Shown here in pieces: positions 32,283 to 64,000 of a DNA stretch of 64,000 nucleotides. The DNA is from an uncultured Bacilli bacterium (GTDB lineage: Bacteria; Bacillota_I; Bacilli_A; RFN20; CAG-631). Both the position numbers and the translations under genes were made by a program. The stretch is taken from the NCBI GenBank assembly GCA_947627355.1, contig CANQVX010000009.1, positions 12,168-76,167 of the forward strand, given 5' to 3'. The notes under the pieces were generated by a model. It ran no database searches. It was not told the DNA's origin and saw only the letters and a list, made by a program, of their open reading frames with translations. The stretch's first letter is position 1, and every line of letters starts with the position of its first letter.

Positions 32283-32879
32283 CTAATCTTTCTTACGATA
32301 ATTTACTTTATGACACTTACGGCATCTTGCTTCATAGCATTCTTTTGCTCCTACTAAAATAATAGGATCATCATAATATGCCGCTTCACCATTGATAAGT
32401 CTTTGAGTTCTTGTAGCTGGTGCTCCACATTTACTACAAACTGCACTAAGTTTAGTAACAAATTCAGCTTTAGCCATTAAAGCTGCTACAACTGGAAATG
32501 GTTCACCTCTAAAATCAGTATCTAAACCAGCAACAATAACTCTTTTTTTAGCATCGGCTAGATTTTCACAGATATCAACGATTTCCATATCAAAGAATTG
32601 AACTTCATCAATAACTACAACATCAATATTAGGATCATTAATAACATTTTTAATTGGTGTTAAATCATTAGAAACAACATAACTTTGATAATGACTGCCA
32701 GCATGAGAAGCAATTTCATCAACGCTATAACGATCATCAATACTTGGTTTAAAAACATGAATTCTTTGTTTTGCATATTCAAGAACTCTAATTCTTTGAA
32801 TTAATTCTTCTGTTTTTCCTGCAAACATACAACCAGTAATAACTTCAATCCATCCTAAATTATAGCGTCTATACATCAT
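32283..32879 (-). CDS. tdk: thymidine kinase
   Basis: 198 aa; P-loop GCMFAGKTEELI, C-terminal zinc ribbon CxxC...CxxC. Confidence 0.9.
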   Translation of the reverse strand: MMYRRYNLGWIEVITGCMFAGKTEELIQRIRVLEYAKQRIHVFKPSIDDRYSVDEIASHAGSHYQSYVVSNDLTPIKNVINDPNIDVVVIDEVQFFDMEIVDICENLADAKKRVIVAGLDTDFRGEPFPVVAALMAKAEFVTKLSAVCSKCGAPATRTQRLINGEAAYYDDPIILVGAKECYEARCRKCHKVNYRKKD

Positions 32880-33411
32880 TTTTATTTTCCCCCTCAGCCA
32901 CTATTTTTTCATATTTTTGATACAATTCATGAACTGTTTCGTGATTAAATGGAAACTCATGATTGATAATCATTTTCTTAACTTGACTAAATTTTGCTTT
33001 GATTATGTGATGTAAATCAAGTGAATAATCATACATATGACGATGCTTACGATATTCAAATTCATCTAATGATTTTATTTCATATGTAGGACTAACCTTG
33101 AAATCCAAATCATAATCAATATATTTAATACATTCTTCATCATAGATACATGGTGAAGCTATATTAACATAATAAAAAATGCCTTCATCGCGGAGCATAC
33201 AAACAACGTTGTACCATGATTTTTTAAAAAAGATGGAGATAGCAGGTTCGTTAGCACGCCATCTTCTACCATCTGATTCAACAACTAATGAATGAGTACT
33301 ACCACAGACTATATAATCTTCATTATCTTCGATTAAATAGGTTTGATACCAGGTTCGATGCACTTTTCCATTATGTTTAAAAGATATAATAACTATTTCT
33401 TTCATTGACAT
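32869..33411 (-). CDS. DUF402 (YgaC/Ntdp-like) nucleoside di/triphosphatase family protein
   Basis: 180 aa; HNGKVHRTW...ESDGRRW...EPAI..F.KK.WYN...YIDYDLDFKV pattern matching B. subtilis YgaC; overlaps tdk by 11 nt. Confidence 0.6.
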   Translation of the reverse strand: MSMKEIVIISFKHNGKVHRTWYQTYLIEDNEDYIVCGSTHSLVVESDGRRWRANEPAISIFFKKSWYNVVCMLRDEGIFYYVNIASPCIYDEECIKYIDYDLDFKVSPTYEIKSLDEFEYRKHRHMYDYSLDLHHIIKAKFSQVKKMIINHEFPFNHETVHELYQKYEKIVAEGENKNDV

Positions 33412-33525
33412 ATTTTAAAACCTCACGACAAAAATTATACCATGCTTTTAAGGTCTTTTAAATAACAATTAAAAGAATTTTTTAAAACAATTTCAAACAT
33501 ATATTTTTTCTTTTAAATTACTTGT

Positions 33526-33639
33526 TTTTTCACAATTGCGACACACTTACAGACACCATTTTTCACAATTGCGAGGGGTTTTAGAGTGCCGTTTTTCACA
33601 ATTGCGGGCACTTTTTAGGTGTCATTTTTCACAATTGCG
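33526..33639. repeat. four perfect 15-bp direct repeats TTTTTCACAATTGCG at exact 33-bp spacing with nested inverted repeats in the 18-bp spacers
   Basis: Copies at 33526-33540, 33559-33573, 33592-33606, 33625-33639; spacers contain GACACC (33552-33557)/GGTGTC (33618-33623) and AGTGCC/GGCACT flanking copy 3. Confidence 0.85.
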
Positions 33640-33809
33640 AGATTACAATAAAATTTTTTATAATAAAAGTATCCATTCTATCGACAAATTTTAAAGTTAA
33701 TGAAAACATTTAATAAAACAATTATTCCAAGGCTACCATTAATAATTATTGATAACTTTAATTTGCTATTTTTTGTTTTTAAATTTTCAGTCAATTTAAA
33801 TATATTTTA

Positions 33810-33845
33810 TTGCATAATAAAACCCAGTGTTTTCATTTCACTGGG
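33810..33845 (-). terminator. intrinsic terminator of the BI-1 family gene
   Basis: ACCCAGTG-8 nt-CACTGGGT hairpin followed on minus strand by TTTATTAT. Confidence 0.5.
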
Positions 33846-33882
33846 TAAATAATGATCTATTGAATTTTTAATTGCTTTGTAA

Positions 33883-34593
33883 TTAGTTTCTATTAGTTGA
33901 AGCAAAAATTCTAACAAGGTAAACAAAGATATTGATGAAATCAAGATATAAATGGAACGCACCATAAATTGCAAGAGATGAAGCATTAGGTGAATTATCC
34001 ATCATATTTTTAATCCATCTAACATCAAATGCTGTAAGTCCGCCAAAAATAATCAAACCAACGATTGATACAGCAAGCATTAAAGTATTGTTATACCAGA
34101 AAATAGCACTAACTATTGACATAATTAACAAACAAGCTAAGCCAATTAAGAAAAAGTTAGAAGCTTTGCTTAAAGCATTTTTAAATAACGAACTTAAAGC
34201 AGCCATTAAGCCAAAATAGCCAGCACTAATTAAGAATATATAAAACAAATCACGAGCAGAAACAATATAGAATAAAAATCCAAAAGTTAAACCATTTAAA
34301 GCAGCATACAAGAAAAACAAAACAATTGTTTTAGTTGTATTTAATCTAAATAAAGCATTTTTACTTAAACTAATTGCAATAACTATTTGAACAATACCAG
34401 TAACAATAATAAACGGAAATGATATACTTGCCATAATAGCATTAGGACTAAGACTAATTAAAAAAGCAAATAGGGCTGTTACTAAAACACCAGCAAACAT
34501 CCATAAAAACACTTTACTAAAATAAAAATTGGAACGTACCCTTGATTGGCTTTGTTCATCATAACTTTCATAGAATTGATTATCGTTATACAT
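33883..34593 (-). CDS. Bax inhibitor-1/YccA family membrane protein
   Basis: 236 aa, 7 TM, family C-terminal motif ...AFHLYLDFINIFVYLVRIF. Confidence 0.75.
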   Translation of the reverse strand: MYNDNQFYESYDEQSQSRVRSNFYFSKVFLWMFAGVLVTALFAFLISLSPNAIMASISFPFIIVTGIVQIVIAISLSKNALFRLNTTKTIVLFFLYAALNGLTFGFLFYIVSARDLFYIFLISAGYFGLMAALSSLFKNALSKASNFFLIGLACLLIMSIVSAIFWYNNTLMLAVSIVGLIIFGGLTAFDVRWIKNMMDNSPNASSLAIYGAFHLYLDFINIFVYLVRIFASTNRN

Positions 34594-39793: not shown

Positions 39794-40306
39794 ATGAAAA
39801 AAATAGTAATCTTAGGAAATTCAGGTAGTGGAAAGTCTACTTTAACTAAAAAGTTAGCAGATCTTTTAAACATGCCTTATTTACATCTTGATACTATTGT
39901 TTGGAAACATAATTGGACTGAAAATGAATATCATGAAATAGAAAATAAAATTAAAGATTTTATCGGTCAAAGCGAATGGATTTGTGATGGAAACTTTTTA
40001 AATAAAGTACCTGAAAGATTTAGTTTATGTGATACATTTATCTTTTTAGATATTCCAAGTTATAAATGTTATTTTCGAGTTATAAAACGTTATTTTAAAT
40101 ATAAAAATAAGCCTCGCGAATCAAGAAGTATCTATTGTAATGAAAAATTAAGCCTTGATTATTTAAAATGGGTTAAGAAGGGCTTTAAAAAACAAAGCCG
40201 TCCAAGAATATTAGAAATGCTTAAAACTACCGATAAAAAGGTTATTATTTTAAAAAACAAAAAAGAGATTAAAAACTTTTTAATCTCCCTCAGTAGTGGT
40301 TTCTGA
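39794..40306 (+). CDS. P-loop NMP-kinase-like protein (topology modulation protein FlaR family)
   Basis: 170 aa; N-terminus KKIVILGNSGSGKSTL, AK-like fold signature DGNF. Confidence 0.55.
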   Translation: MKKIVILGNSGSGKSTLTKKLADLLNMPYLHLDTIVWKHNWTENEYHEIENKIKDFIGQSEWICDGNFLNKVPERFSLCDTFIFLDIPSYKCYFRVIKRYFKYKNKPRESRSIYCNEKLSLDYLKWVKKGFKKQSRPRILEMLKTTDKKVIILKNKKEIKNFLISLSSGF

Positions 40307-42576: not shown

Positions 42577-42737
42577 AAAAACAAACTCCCCTCTTCGTTT
42601 TTTATTATATTATAAAATGCTTAAAAGTTATATAACTTTTTTAGGTTTCCTTGAATTATTTTAAAATTATTTAAAAAATATATTTTTTAAATTTTATGTC
42701 GTGTTATAATAGTAACGGCAATAGGGGGATGAATTGT

Positions 42738-43370
42738 ATGAAACCTATTTTAATTATTGTTGCTGGTGGTAGTGCTTCTGGAAAATCTACCGTTGTAAAC
42801 GAAATAATAAACAAATTAAAATCAGTTCATGTGACAACTATTAGACATGATGATTACTATTGTGACTTATCTGATATGCCACTTGAAGAAAGAAAAAAAG
42901 TCAATTATGACCATCCAGATTCACTAGATAACGATTTATTATATGAACATTTAAAATTATTATTAAACAATCAACCAATTTTAAAACCAACTTATGATTT
43001 TATAAATCATAATAGAGCAAAAGAAGTTGAAAAAATTGAACCTAAAAAAGTTATTATTCTTGAAGGGATTTTAACCCTTGTTGATAAAAGAATTAGAGAC
43101 TTAGCTGATATTAAAATATTTGTTGAATTAGATGATGATTTAAGATTTATCCGGCGTTTACAAAGAGATATTAACGAAAGAGGACGAACAGTTGATAATG
43201 TAATCGAACAATACTTAAAAACAGTTAAACCAATGTTTCATACCTATGTAAAACCTCAAAAGAAATATTGTGACATCATAATTCCTAATGATAAAAGTCA
43301 TGATGTAGCTGTTGATGTAATCGTTTGTAAAATCAAAGATATTTTACAAAATTCTACTGTAAATAATTAA
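42738..43370 (+). CDS. udk: uridine kinase
   Basis: P-loop AGGSASGKST, uridine kinase core; start at ATG 42738 (GGGGG RBS 9 nt upstream). Confidence 0.85.
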   Translation: MKPILIIVAGGSASGKSTVVNEIINKLKSVHVTTIRHDDYYCDLSDMPLEERKKVNYDHPDSLDNDLLYEHLKLLLNNQPILKPTYDFINHNRAKEVEKIEPKKVIILEGILTLVDKRIRDLADIKIFVELDDDLRFIRRLQRDINERGRTVDNVIEQYLKTVKPMFHTYVKPQKKYCDIIIPNDKSHDVAVDVIVCKIKDILQNSTVNN

Positions 43371-60158: not shown

Positions 60159-62768
60159 TTATTTGTTTTGTTTTAGTTCCTTTAATTTTTCTTCAATACT
60201 TGCTTTTCTTGATAAATAATTTTGAAGTTTTTCTTTTTCTTCTTTTATTTTATTTTCAGGAGCTTTTTCTAGAAATCTAGGATTAGATAACATTGCATTG
60301 CATCTATTAACTTCATTTATGAATTTTTCAAGTTCTGCTTCATATTTTTTAATTTCAGCTTCAACATCAACATCTTTATGGTAATTTATTAAATAATTTG
60401 CATTTTCAGTTGCTAGAATTGTGGCATTTTCATCCTTTTTATCGACAAATTTTAGATGATTGAATTGTTCAATAATAGTAGCATAATTGTCTAATAATTG
60501 TCCTATTAATGTTGATTTTTGTTCAACATTTACTTCTAATATTTCTTTATTTTTAATGTTATTTGTGTTTCGATAATTTCTAATAAATGTTGTAAGTTCA
60601 ATGATTTCATTCATTTGTTTATTAACATCTTTACTATCATTTACTTTTAAGATAGTAGGCCATGTTTCTAAACAAATTGATTTTTTAGCTTCTGGTAGTG
60701 CTTGATATAATTCTTCACTAACAAACGGAACAAAAGGATGAAGTAGGATAATAATAGCCTTTAAAGCATAATATAAAACTTGTTTGGTTGCTTCTTTAGT
60801 TTTATCATTTGCTAGATTTAACTTACTAATTTCAATATACCAAGAACAAAAATTATCCCATACTAAGGAAGTTAAATAACTACCAACATTAGCAAATTCA
60901 TATTTTTCAAGATTTTCTTCGATATTAGTTATAGCTTCATTTAATCTAACAACCATCCATTTATCCATCAAAGGTAACTTATCATAATCAAATCCAGTGA
61001 CTTTAAAATCAGCACCTAGATTCATTAAAACAAATCTAGCAGCATTCCAAATCTTGTTAATAAAGTTCCAACTAGATGATATCTTTTCACTTGAAAATCT
61101 AAAATCAATACCTGGTGCACTATTAGTAGCTAAAAAGAATCTTAAAGCATCAGCCCCATATTTATCGATAACTTCCATAGGATCAATACCATTGCCTAAT
61201 GATTTTGACATCTTACGTCCTTGTTCATCACGAATTAAACCATGAATCAAAACTTGTTTAAATGGAACCTTATCAGTAAATTCAATAGCTTCAAACATCA
61301 TTCTAGATACCCAAAAGAAAATAATATCATAAGCAGTAACTAATAAATCATTTGGATAATAACGTTTATAATCGTCTGTTATTTCAGGCCAACCTAAAGT
61401 TGTAAATGGCCATAAAGCCGATGAAAACCAAGTATCTAAAACATCTTCATCTTGAACATAGTTTTCGATATCTTTAGGAGGATTGAATGATACTAATATT
61501 TCATCGCTACCTTTTTTATAATAAGCAGGTATTCTATGTCCCCACCATAATTGACGAGAAACACACCAGTCTTCAATATTTTCTAACCATTGAATAAATA
61601 TTTTTTCAAATCTAGCTGGAAAGAATTGCACACCCTTATTATTTTTTTGTCTATCTAGAGTATTCTTTGCTAGTTTTTTCATCGAAACAAACCATTGTTT
61701 AGATAACATTGGTTCAACAATAGCATCACTACGTTCAGAATGACCCACTTGATGTAAATGAGTTTCAATCTTTTCAACTAAACCTTTGTTAGTTAATTCT
61801 TTTACCAATTCTTCACGGCATTTAAAACGATCCATACCTTCATACTTATTTGCTCTAGCATTCATAGTAGCATCTAGATTCATACAAACAATTTGTTTTA
61901 AATGATGTTTTTCACCTAGCATATAGTCATTAGGATCATGAGCTGGTGTACATTTCATAGCTCCTGTTGCAAATTCAATATCAACATATTCATCAAAAAT
62001 AATAGGTAGTAATTCATCATTAGCAGGATTTATAACCTTTTTATCTTTTAAATGTTGATATCTTTCATCCTTAGGATTAACAACAACGGCTACATCACCA
62101 AACATAGTTTCAGGTCTAGTTGTACCAACAATGATATAATCATTACTATTTTCAAGATAATAACGGAAATAATACATATGACCTTCTATTTCTTTATAGA
62201 TAACTTCAATGTTAGATAAAGCAGTCTTTAATACTGGATCCCAGTTAATTATCTTTTCTTTTCGATAGATATAACCTTTTTCATATAAAGATACAAAGAC
62301 TTTTCTAACAGCCACATTTCTTTTATCATCAAGGGTAAAGGCTTCTCTACTATAATCTAAAGACATTCCAATCTTTTTCCATTGACTACGAATAGTATTA
62401 GCATATTCTTTTTTCCATTCCCATGCTACTTTTAAGAATTCTTCACGGCCAATATCATATTTGTTGATACCTTGATCTCTTAATTTCTTTTCAATCTTTG
62501 CTTGAGTGGCAATGCCTGCATGGTCCATACCAGCAACCCATAAAACATCATAACCCTTAAGTCTTTTATAACGCATGATAACATCTTGTAAAGTGCCATT
62601 ATAAGCATGACCTAAATGTAACATACCAGTAACATTAGGTGGTGGTAAAACTACACAATAGGGCTTTTTAGTTATATCACCAGCCGTAAAATAGCCTTCT
62701 TTTACCCAGGTATCATATTTATTTTCTTCAACCTTGATATGATCATATTTAACATCTAATGTCTTCAT
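60159..62768 (-). CDS. valS: valine--tRNA ligase
   Basis: 869 aa; HLGH and KMSKS motifs, editing domain, C-terminal coiled coil. Confidence 0.97.
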   Translation of the reverse strand: MKTLDVKYDHIKVEENKYDTWVKEGYFTAGDITKKPYCVVLPPPNVTGMLHLGHAYNGTLQDVIMRYKRLKGYDVLWVAGMDHAGIATQAKIEKKLRDQGINKYDIGREEFLKVAWEWKKEYANTIRSQWKKIGMSLDYSREAFTLDDKRNVAVRKVFVSLYEKGYIYRKEKIINWDPVLKTALSNIEVIYKEIEGHMYYFRYYLENSNDYIIVGTTRPETMFGDVAVVVNPKDERYQHLKDKKVINPANDELLPIIFDEYVDIEFATGAMKCTPAHDPNDYMLGEKHHLKQIVCMNLDATMNARANKYEGMDRFKCREELVKELTNKGLVEKIETHLHQVGHSERSDAIVEPMLSKQWFVSMKKLAKNTLDRQKNNKGVQFFPARFEKIFIQWLENIEDWCVSRQLWWGHRIPAYYKKGSDEILVSFNPPKDIENYVQDEDVLDTWFSSALWPFTTLGWPEITDDYKRYYPNDLLVTAYDIIFFWVSRMMFEAIEFTDKVPFKQVLIHGLIRDEQGRKMSKSLGNGIDPMEVIDKYGADALRFFLATNSAPGIDFRFSSEKISSSWNFINKIWNAARFVLMNLGADFKVTGFDYDKLPLMDKWMVVRLNEAITNIEENLEKYEFANVGSYLTSLVWDNFCSWYIEISKLNLANDKTKEATKQVLYYALKAIIILLHPFVPFVSEELYQALPEAKKSICLETWPTILKVNDSKDVNKQMNEIIELTTFIRNYRNTNNIKNKEILEVNVEQKSTLIGQLLDNYATIIEQFNHLKFVDKKDENATILATENANYLINYHKDVDVEAEIKKYEAELEKFINEVNRCNAMLSNPRFLEKAPENKIKEEKEKLQNYLSRKASIEEKLKELKQNK

Positions 62769-63045
62769 AAATTAACCTCCTAAAAATAAAAAAACGCCCT
62801 AATTTAAGGACGCATAATATACGTGGTACCACCTTAATTTATTTGTAATAATTATTTTTACAAATACACTCATTTCCTATTAACGCTAGGACACGATTGA
62901 ACTACTTATTTTTCATTCAATGTACTCCAAGACTACCTTCAAATTGTTTCTTTATCATGTTTCAGCAAGCCATGACTCTCTAGAAAAGCAAACAATTTTA
63001 CTCCTTCTTTTCTTCGTACAAGTAAATACTACTGAAATTAATACT
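62769..63045 (-). promoter_or_regulatory. T-box riboswitch leader of valS (promoter, stem I, T-box sequence, terminator/antiterminator)
   Basis: On minus strand TTGACA promoter near 63040, AGAGA-GUC-A candidate specifier loop (GUC is a Val codon), T-box motif AATTAAGGTGGTACCACG (plus 62822-62839), terminator hairpin plus U7 (62790-62813) just before the RBS. Confidence 0.6.
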
Positions 63046-63059
63046 AATTGTCAAACATT

Positions 63060-63473
63060 TTATCCATAAATACCGAAATAAATGGTCATATTTTTGGTTA
63101 AATATTGCTCTGTTAAAATGTTTGTGGCAAGTCCAGTTTTTTTATCATATTTAGTCATAAATGGTGTATAAGCCCAAAAGCCATCACCATGTAGTGGTGG
63201 AACATGATAATTTAATGTATTCCATGTAAATCTATCAATATCTTCATATGATAAAAAATAACCCTTCTCATATTCACGTTTTGTTTCAGCAAGCACTTCA
63301 TCTTTAAAATAATATCCAGCAAAATGGCCATTTTCATCTACATGTTCAGTAATAAGTGTCAGTTGCAAAAACGTTAATACAACTGTTTTATCTTCTTCAG
63401 CTGTTGACTTATCACAGCCAGTAAACATAAGTAAGTTAGAAAGTAATAAAAAGAATGCAACTGTTTTTTTCAT
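63060..63473 (-). CDS. small lipoprotein, tandem paralog B (unknown function)
   Basis: 137 aa, lipobox LMFTGC; near-identical to upstream paralog; weak RBS. Confidence 0.5.
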   Translation of the reverse strand: MKKTVAFFLLLSNLLMFTGCDKSTAEEDKTVVLTFLQLTLITEHVDENGHFAGYYFKDEVLAETKREYEKGYFLSYEDIDRFTWNTLNYHVPPLHGDGFWAYTPFMTKYDKKTGLATNILTEQYLTKNMTIYFGIYG

Positions 63474-63479
63474 ATAATT

Positions 63480-63893
63480 CTATCCAAAAATTCCAAAATA
63501 AATGGTCATATCTTTTGTTAAATATTGCTTTTCTAAAATGTTTGTGGCAAGTCCAGTTTCTTTATCAAATTCTGTCATAAATGATGTGTAAAACCAATAA
63601 CCCCCACCATTTAATGTTGGAACATGATGATTTAATCTATTCCAACGAATCATTTCAATTTCTTCATGCGACAAAAAATAACCTTTTTCATATTCAAATT
63701 TGGTTTCAGCAAGCACTTCATCTTTAAAATAATAACCAGCAAAATGGCCATTTTCATCTACATGTTCAGTAATAAGTGTCAGTTGTAAAAACGTTAATAC
63801 AACTGTTTTATCTTCTTTTGCTTTTGACTTATCACAGCCAGTAAACATAAGTAAGTTAGAAAGTAATAAAAAGAATGCGACTGTTTTTTTCAT
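63480..63893 (-). CDS. small lipoprotein, tandem paralog A (unknown function)
   Basis: 137 aa, lipobox LMFTGC; GAAAGGAG RBS and TGnTATAAT promoter upstream (63915-63935). Confidence 0.55.
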   Translation of the reverse strand: MKKTVAFFLLLSNLLMFTGCDKSKAKEDKTVVLTFLQLTLITEHVDENGHFAGYYFKDEVLAETKFEYEKGYFLSHEEIEMIRWNRLNHHVPTLNGGGYWFYTSFMTEFDKETGLATNILEKQYLTKDMTIYFGIFG

Positions 63894-64000
63894 ATAATTC
63901 TCCTTTCTGAATCATTAAATATGTTTTAGACATCTATATTATACAATAAAAAAGAACAAATAATAAGCCTCTTATTATTTGCCCCCATTTACTTTATTAA

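Follow-up and report, generated by a model that had tools for sequence, protein, structure and literature searches.

Why should one 15-bp sequence occur four times without a mismatch, at exactly regular intervals, in the DNA upstream of a DUF402 gene and a thymidine kinase gene? The window, by which we mean the whole 64-kb stretch of DNA that was analysed, has a GC content of 28% and uses the standard genetic code. Gene content indicates that the source organism is a spore-forming member of the Bacillota, because spoVT, yabP/yabQ-like genes, spoIIE, yqfD and a Germane-domain gene are all present in the window. The nearest named relative of the DUF402 protein is found in a 'Candidatus Caccosoma' MAG (64% identity). 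On the minus strand the order is murA, GDSL-like, Bax1-I (33883-34593), terminator, gap, DUF402 (32869-33411, with its ATG at 33409-33411) and thymidine kinase (tdk, 32283-32879), the last two genes overlapping by 11 nt. The gap between Bax1-I and DUF402 (33412-33882) is the longest clean gap near the locus, and its description in the initial annotation as unusually long, at about 470 bp, was accurate (471 nt). At its upstream end lies the intrinsic terminator of Bax1-I (33814-33845, minus strand; CCCAGTG-loop-CACTGGG followed by TTTTATTAT), which marks the edge of the array-bearing DNA, and at its downstream end are the extended -10 box TGGTATAAT of the DUF402-tdk operon and the DUF402 ribosome-binding site GTGAGGT (33420-33426, minus strand). 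An extended -10 promoter had been predicted here and is indeed present, but at 33434-33442 (minus strand) and not at 33430-33438. The box is outside the array, and the distance between the two, earlier given as 90-200 bp, is corrected to approximately 85-205 bp. Between the box and the terminator lie the approximately 350 nt of lineage-specific intergenic DNA (33443-33813) that bear the array. The neighbours are Bax1-I, GDSL-like, MurA, DUF402, TK and SpoIIE, followed by more housekeeping and sporulation genes. A scan of 25 ORFs, made up of neighbours and others in the window, revealed no gene for replication, for partition, for an integrase, for a transposase or for a dedicated regulator.

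An exact search agreed with the original description of four perfect 15-bp repeats in 33-bp phasing. The 15-mer TTTTTCACAATTGCG was found in four copies with no mismatches, starting on the plus strand at 33526, 33559, 33592 and 33625, and the distances from copy to copy are exactly 33/33/33 bp; TRF reported a 33-nt period with 3.5 copies. The sixteenth base is A in the copies at 33526, 33559 and 33625 and G in the copy at 33592, and the plus strand from 33526 to 33640 can be written as R-CACACTTACAGACACCA-R-GGGGTTTTAGAGTGCCG-R'-GCACTTTTTAGGTGTCA-R, in which R is TTTTTCACAATTGCGA and R' ends in G. Numbered in the direction of DUF402-tdk transcription and read on the minus strand, where the core is TCGCAATTGTGAAAAA, copy 1 is at 33625-33640, copy 2 at 33592-33607, copy 3 at 33559-33574 and copy 4 at 33526-33541. 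Copies 1 and 3 are identical to copy 4 as 16-mers and copy 2 as a 15-mer, its sixteenth base being the sole variable core column. All units are arranged head to tail in the same direction, and each core holds a 12-bp quasi-palindrome, TCRCAA joined directly to TTGYGA, with one transition mismatch. The spacers are all 17 nt long with no length changes, and their pairwise identities of 4-9/17 are near random. Spacer 1 (33542-33558) contains GACACC, spacer 2 (33575-33591) contains AGTGCC, and spacer 3 (33608-33624) contains GGTGTC and, using the preceding G, GGCACT.

When the three complete units were aligned in register, variable columns numbered 1 of 16 in the core versus 14 of 17 in the spacer (Fisher p = 1.3e-5). 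The array has a GC content of 40% versus 19% in the rest of the gap, which places it at the 98th percentile among all 115-nt windows. Elsewhere in the 64-kb window there was no match to the 15-mer with up to two mismatches (0.48 expected), no copy of the 13-mer core or of the 12-bp quasi-palindrome TCRCAATTGYGA, and no other short phased repeat run; allowing up to three mismatches, the 16-mer gave one unrelated match, against 0-4 in shuffles. The array is real and far beyond chance. The statement that all copies lie on one DNA face holds only approximately, as 33 bp corresponds to 3.14 turns at 10.5 bp per turn; by arithmetic, copies 1 and 4 are about 150 degrees apart at that pitch and would line up only if the local twist were 11 bp per turn.

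With respect to the proteins that might recognize such a core, known motifs were compared by eye, using their consensus sequences. DnaA-box clusters need several 8-9/9 matches above background, whereas here TTTTTCACA matches 7/9 of the DnaA box TTATCCACA, and all four copies, in one orientation, score 7/9 with none better. Matches to the box with up to two mismatches numbered 267 in the window versus 298.5 +/- 15 in shuffles, and the array is not next to a dnaA gene within the annotated part of the window. The proposed DnaA-box cluster fails on this comparison, as 7/9 matches occur in the window at or below chance frequency. CRP/FNR proteins recognize TGTGA-N6-TCACA and Rex recognizes TTGTGAA-N4-TTCACAA. 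The suggested CRP/FNR site could not be sustained either: each core supplies only the TGTGA half-site, with no TCACA partner at N6 in all copies, and the second half-site position falls in the spacers, where 3/5, 3/5, 0/5 and 1/5 positions match. A Rex operator was rejected because each core gives only TTGTGAA, with the second half in the variable spacers. The NrdR box, LytTR/ComE-type 9-mers, the Spo0A box, CIRCE, the sigma-54 -24/-12 element and the parS half-site were also tried, and none fits all copies or the spacing. Neither the window scan nor this motif comparison yielded a partner protein or a known motif match for the core.

The position of the array is poor for an operator because its sites lie approximately 100-205 bp upstream of the only conserved promoter, counted from the transcription start implied by the conserved -10 box; the nearest repeat copy is approximately 65 bp from the -35 region. 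Further promoters can be predicted beside the array. On the plus strand, TTGCGA-18-TATAAT at 33635-33664 has its -35-like hexamer TTGCGA inside copy 1, and on the minus strand, that of the operon, a weak candidate, TTGTCG-16-TATTAT (33687-33660), is found upstream of the array. Promoter-like matches are at background level, with 7 found versus 4.9 expected.

The array is missing from six related species in which both the gene order and an extended -10 promoter are kept. Their equivalent TGnTATAAT boxes lie as far from the start codon as the box in the window does. In the P0002 type (DUF402 77% identical) the gap is 459 nt long and aligns with the window gap only over the promoter-proximal 120 nt; the approximately 350 nt of array-bearing DNA have no detectable homologue in this nearest species. 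A 15/16 match to the core in this species was dismissed as chance (BLAST E = 0.03 among many equal AT-rich matches). In the P0003, P0004, P0005, P0007 and P0009 types (DUF402 68-70%) the gaps are 75-120 nt and hold just a terminator hairpin, then TGnTATAAT, then a ribosome-binding site. As the promoter is kept in six species that have no array, it is conserved and appears to work without it. The array had been proposed to bind a dedicated regulator of nucleotide salvage; that six species have the orthologous operon and its promoter but not the array argues against this, and against the array as a conserved cis-regulator of DUF402-tdk.

For comparison among strains, exact matches to the protein sequence were looked up, which recovered this locus from many metagenome assemblies, and with the shared Bax1-I protein only two gap lengths were recovered, 471 and 400 nt. 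The window haplotype (DUF402 100%, gap 471 nt, four copies) is represented by nine independent metagenome contigs, across which the array is identical. The complete gap is identical in eight of them, and the ninth has two SNPs, both outside the array. In this strain, DRR848910, one SNP breaks a G-C pair of the terminator stem (CACTGGG to CACAGGG, equivalent to ~33827) and the other sits downstream of the array. In the sister lineage (DUF402 99%, gap 400 nt) there are two copies, each mutated, arranged as TAGCAATTGTGAAAAA-CGGTGCCTGTAAGTGTG-TCGCACTTGTGAAAAA with one substitution per core and a 17-nt spacer. Metagenomes yielded both haplotypes, in some cases within one run series.

Between sister and window, the genes differ at 6/543 nt in DUF402, 11/597 nt in tdk and 0/711 nt in Bax1-I, and third codon positions of the flanking genes differ at approximately 2%. 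The array is no better conserved than its surroundings between these two lineages of the same species, because the retained array differs at 4/49 positions overall and the cores at 2/32, compared with approximately 17/340 positions (5%), plus small indels, in the gap outside the array. Strong selection, one of the two causes earlier offered for the perfect identity, is not supported, as the array evolves no more slowly than the intergenic DNA around it and two units have been lost. Core changes amount to 1/64 positions in the window lineage and 2/32 in the sister, and the cores seem to have changed at about the neutral rate since the lineages split; zero changes in 64 nt would have a probability of approximately 0.2 under neutrality, and two haplotypes cannot separate drift from weak selection on the core. 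Comparison with relatives had been named beforehand as a check that could overturn the initial interpretation, and the array proved to be non-conserved in close relatives, with two mutated copies in the sister and none in the six species.

The sister spacer CGGTGCCTGTAAGTGTG starts like window spacer 2 and goes on like spacer 3. It looks like a chimera of the two, which fits deletion from a longer array; this deletion is in register with the repeats, and we infer that the change ran from four copies to two. The predicted plus-strand promoter is not kept in the sister lineage, where its spacing is destroyed. The gap as a whole (33412-33882 versus 1065-1464 of sister contig L093) differs by approximately 5% plus indels, with Bax1-I identical and DUF402/tdk differing by 1.1-1.8%. 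Divergence of the gap next to near-identical genes suggests that it evolves faster than synonymous sites, or that the locus is a recombination mosaic.

In some strains of the sister lineage the stretch that separates the array from the DUF402 promoter is interrupted by an inserted element. Its terminal inverted repeats, GTAACTTGACAAAGTAAAATATAGTTTTTTGAAAC, are 35 nt long and perfect, and it is accompanied by a 14-nt target duplication, TGTTTGAAATTGTT, whose equivalent in the window is at 33486-33499 (minus strand), likewise between array and promoter. The element was deduced from sister-type contigs that break 26 nt past the last repeat and from others beginning just upstream of DUF402. Its ends were read from L225 (3520-3566), L227 (3330-3400), L233/L236 (1-60) and L234/L235 (1-35), all contigs breaking inside the element, and they had no match in the window or in IMG/VR.

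Coding across the array was rejected, as its open frames of 52 aa (plus strand) and 32 aa (minus strand) are without ribosome-binding sites. A 50-aa hydrophobic ORF, MKTFNKTIIPRLPLIIIDNFNLLFFVFKFSVNLNIFYCIIKPSVFISLGK, runs from 33700 to 33852 on the plus strand through the Bax1-I terminator. It is not preceded by a clear ribosome-binding site, the sister lineage has a frameshift in it together with 4 non-synonymous versus 2 synonymous changes, and it is probably not a gene. The array resembles CRISPR arrays in having identical repeats, unrelated spacers of constant length and strain differences of whole units. CRISPR repeats, however, are approximately 23-50 nt and spacers approximately 26-72 nt, and they come with cas genes or a leader and match a CRISPR repeat family. 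Here the repeats (16 nt) and spacers (17 nt) are much shorter than any known, and the scan of 25 window ORFs revealed no cas genes. Rfam CRISPR models scored 15-16 bits versus the 44-45 needed (E ~7). Searched as protospacers, the three spacers gave 8, 2 and 1 viral matches, 7 of the 8 being from a single phage family, which is at chance level, and there were no spacer self-matches in the window. A CRISPR assignment was rejected on the repeat and spacer sizes, the absence of cas genes from the ORFs scanned and the chance-level viral matches.

Searches for the array elsewhere were also negative. Against PLSDB plasmids and INPHARED phages, blastn gave only chance fragments. A scan of IMG/VR with the 15-mer returned 74 single chance matches and no two-copy pattern, and a three-copy 10-mer pattern there led to two unrelated AT-rich giant-virus repeats, which were discarded. 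Among the matches listed in a GTDB scan of the 15-mer there were only single chance matches in unrelated taxa, no core copies were present in approximately 20 kb of related loci, and a literature search for the motif strings returned only primers and unrelated oligonucleotides. A JGI metagenome scan for two phased cores gave two loci, L217 and L218, both rejected as unrelated. At L217 (3400-3600; ERZ1034427 NODE-1069), from an unrelated organism of higher GC content, four tandem units of approximately 37 nt end in CTCAATTGTGAA(A/G)AAA and are flanked by genes for a MocR-like aminotransferase/regulator and an ArsR-type regulator. These units share the 13-mer CAATTGTGAAAAA with the window array, which was judged a chance match given the size of the database.

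The reading that we prefer, with a probability of about 0.4, is that the array is young, lineage-restricted and dispensable, and that it most likely consists of orphan or fossil phased binding sites that are now decaying neutrally. A strain-variable intergenic direct-repeat array is in itself a known kind of feature. Here it comprises four phased copies of a 16-bp quasi-palindromic site within approximately 350 bp of extra DNA that separates the terminator of Bax1-I from the conserved promoter of DUF402-tdk in this species. Invariant cores with unrelated spacers of fixed length cannot come from the uniform decay of a tandem duplication and fit a constraint on site and spacing, and the ordinary cause of a fixed core and spacing with a free spacer would be a protein that binds the core cooperatively at phased sites. 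Since kept cores with unrelated fixed-length spacers are not expected as a product of slippage, some sequence-specific partner probably existed at some time, and the 12-bp near-palindrome in the core suggests that this protein was a dimer. The sites would thus have originated as iteron- or operator-like targets of a sequence-specific, probably dimeric DNA-binding protein, with the core sequence and the 33-bp spacing once constrained and the spacer sequence free. The array may have arrived with the lineage-specific insert or arisen within it; both protein binding and a foreign or insertional origin are what we infer from sequence patterns. It would now be an orphan, with no partner gene nearby and not needed by the promoter. 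Since the lineage split, two units would have been lost through recombination or slippage between direct repeats, the cores would have gained point mutations, and the mobile element would have inserted next to the array.

The closest parallels are plasmid and phage iterons and centromere-like arrays (RK2/pPS10 iterons, pSK41 parC), which consist of at least three direct repeats of a 16-22-bp site. Like them, the array has a conserved core, free spacers, fixed spacing near a whole number of turns and AT-rich DNA on both sides, and its four copies with a conserved core keep a 33-bp register. It differs from them in that their usual spacing is 11 or 21-23 bp, and in that it lies in chromosomal DNA among housekeeping genes, with no adjacent rep or par gene (that is, no initiator or partition gene and no mobile context) and no plasmid or phage similarity. 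Nor did the searches of PLSDB plasmids, INPHARED phages, IMG/VR and JGI metagenomes turn up a donor element. The label 'iteron-like protein-binding array' given by the initial annotation survives as a statement of likely origin, being the best guess for identical cores, unrelated spacers and constant spacing.

The GC island and the invariant cores equally fit a site that still works in 4-copy strains, bound there by a putative regulator encoded elsewhere. Such a live operator or iteron array might modulate DUF402-tdk by looping or bending, block the weak same-strand promoter upstream, or block the plus-strand promoter. Constant spacing, identity in nine independent 4-copy contigs and predicted promoters adjoining the array on both sides speak for it, and we regard it as unlikely, at perhaps one chance in a handful, as the array is missing from the six species with the conserved promoter, the sister has only two mutated copies with a mobile element before the promoter in some strains, promoter-like matches are at background, the plus-strand promoter loses its spacing in the sister, and no regulator gene is nearby. 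Among known systems this possibility recalls the TTTTGAT heptads of Vibrio cholerae ctxAB, which are strain-variable tandem repeats upstream of a promoter. Both are arrays of a protein-recognisable motif upstream of a promoter with copy number varying between strains, but ctxAB-type repeats adjoin or overlap the promoter and are identical as whole units, whereas the array stands back from the -35 region and its spacers differ. A somewhat less probable account holds that the array never had a sequence-specific ligand and is simply a minisatellite (VNTR), in which slippage during replication at a hairpin-prone core amplified and contracted a 33-bp unit. Head-to-tail units with copy-number polymorphism (four versus two), a deletion that keeps to the repeat register, the location in a gap that evolves fast and accepts insertions, and the lack of conservation beyond the species speak for this account. 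Slippage, however, copies whole units, which should then be related over their whole length with even divergence, yet only the spacers have diverged and the cores are identical (p = 1.3e-5), and no spacer has changed in length. More doubtful again is that the window holds one locus of a dispersed short-repeat family of the STAR or REP/BOX/MITE type, with its other copies outside the window. The STAR elements of Staphylococcus aureus form such a dispersed multi-locus family, and like the array they are short, GC-richer direct repeats at regular intervals with variable spacers, intergenic and variable in copy number between strains; the array moreover adjoins the site of another mobile-element insertion. 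Unlike STAR, it occupies one locus only in the 64-kb window, with no further exact or degenerate copies there or in the approximately 20 kb of related loci, and no flanking inverted ends or target duplication are evident.

That the array acts as a structured RNA, either as a DUF402-tdk 5' leader or as a small RNA, we consider improbable. The minus-strand core UCGCAAUUGUGA is fully self-complementary via G-U pairs, and copies 1 and 4 could pair and enclose spacer stems. The predicted minus-strand fold reaches -36.5 kcal/mol (z = -4.8 versus dinucleotide shuffles; z = -3.4 for the plus strand), the array stands out as GC-rich in an AT-rich genome, and the candidate same-strand promoter lies just upstream. 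With the cores fixed and only the spacers shuffled, however, the fold energy is ordinary (z = +0.26 and -0.43), so that the stability comes from the palindromic repeat. The nested hairpins earlier read from this sequence are not supported: the complementary 6-mers are present (GACACC/GGTGTC and AGTGCC/GGCACT, 2 pairs observed versus 0.28 expected), but the pairs are only marginal (P ~0.06) and the fold is no better than in spacer-shuffled controls. Rfam 15 gave nothing at the locus at gathering level and nothing relevant at E up to 10 over 33350-33950, and a tRNA/tmRNA search found none. Moreover, the minus strand has no terminator after the array, each of the two core substitutions in the sister disrupts pairing without compensation, and the array is missing from relatives. 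Least probable of all, and a long shot by any measure, is either a miniature repeat-spacer locus that adds a 16-nt repeat with a new 17-nt spacer by an acquisition-like or templated process, in which case the 4-copy form could derive from the 2-copy form, or a chromosomal iteron array for a new DNA-binding protein with a role outside transcription, which could be, for example, chromosome organisation during sporulation near spoIIE.

The result removes a tempting wrong interpretation, namely a cluster of DnaA or CRP sites controlling thymidine salvage. The strain-variable repeat locus could serve as a typing marker for this uncultured Caccosoma-like lineage, and if more arrays or the binding protein were found they would offer a handle on a new DNA-binding system in poorly studied Bacillota.

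Several other features of the window were recorded. A dNK/AAA-like protein of 170 aa (39794-40306, plus strand) and a uridine kinase family protein (42696-43370, plus strand) are encoded less than 10 kb from tdk, and salvage genes are in this sense loosely clustered. The sole gathering-level Rfam match in the window is a T-box leader (62803-63023, minus strand, 136.7 bits) upstream of a gene for an 869-aa class I tRNA synthetase (60159-62768), which, with its Val_tRNA-synt_C arm, is most likely valS. Beyond the leader, 63057-63901 contains a 420-bp tandem duplication with 88% identity, which corresponds to a pair of neighbouring 137-aa ORFs (63060-63473 and 63480-63893, minus strand), both without a Pfam match.
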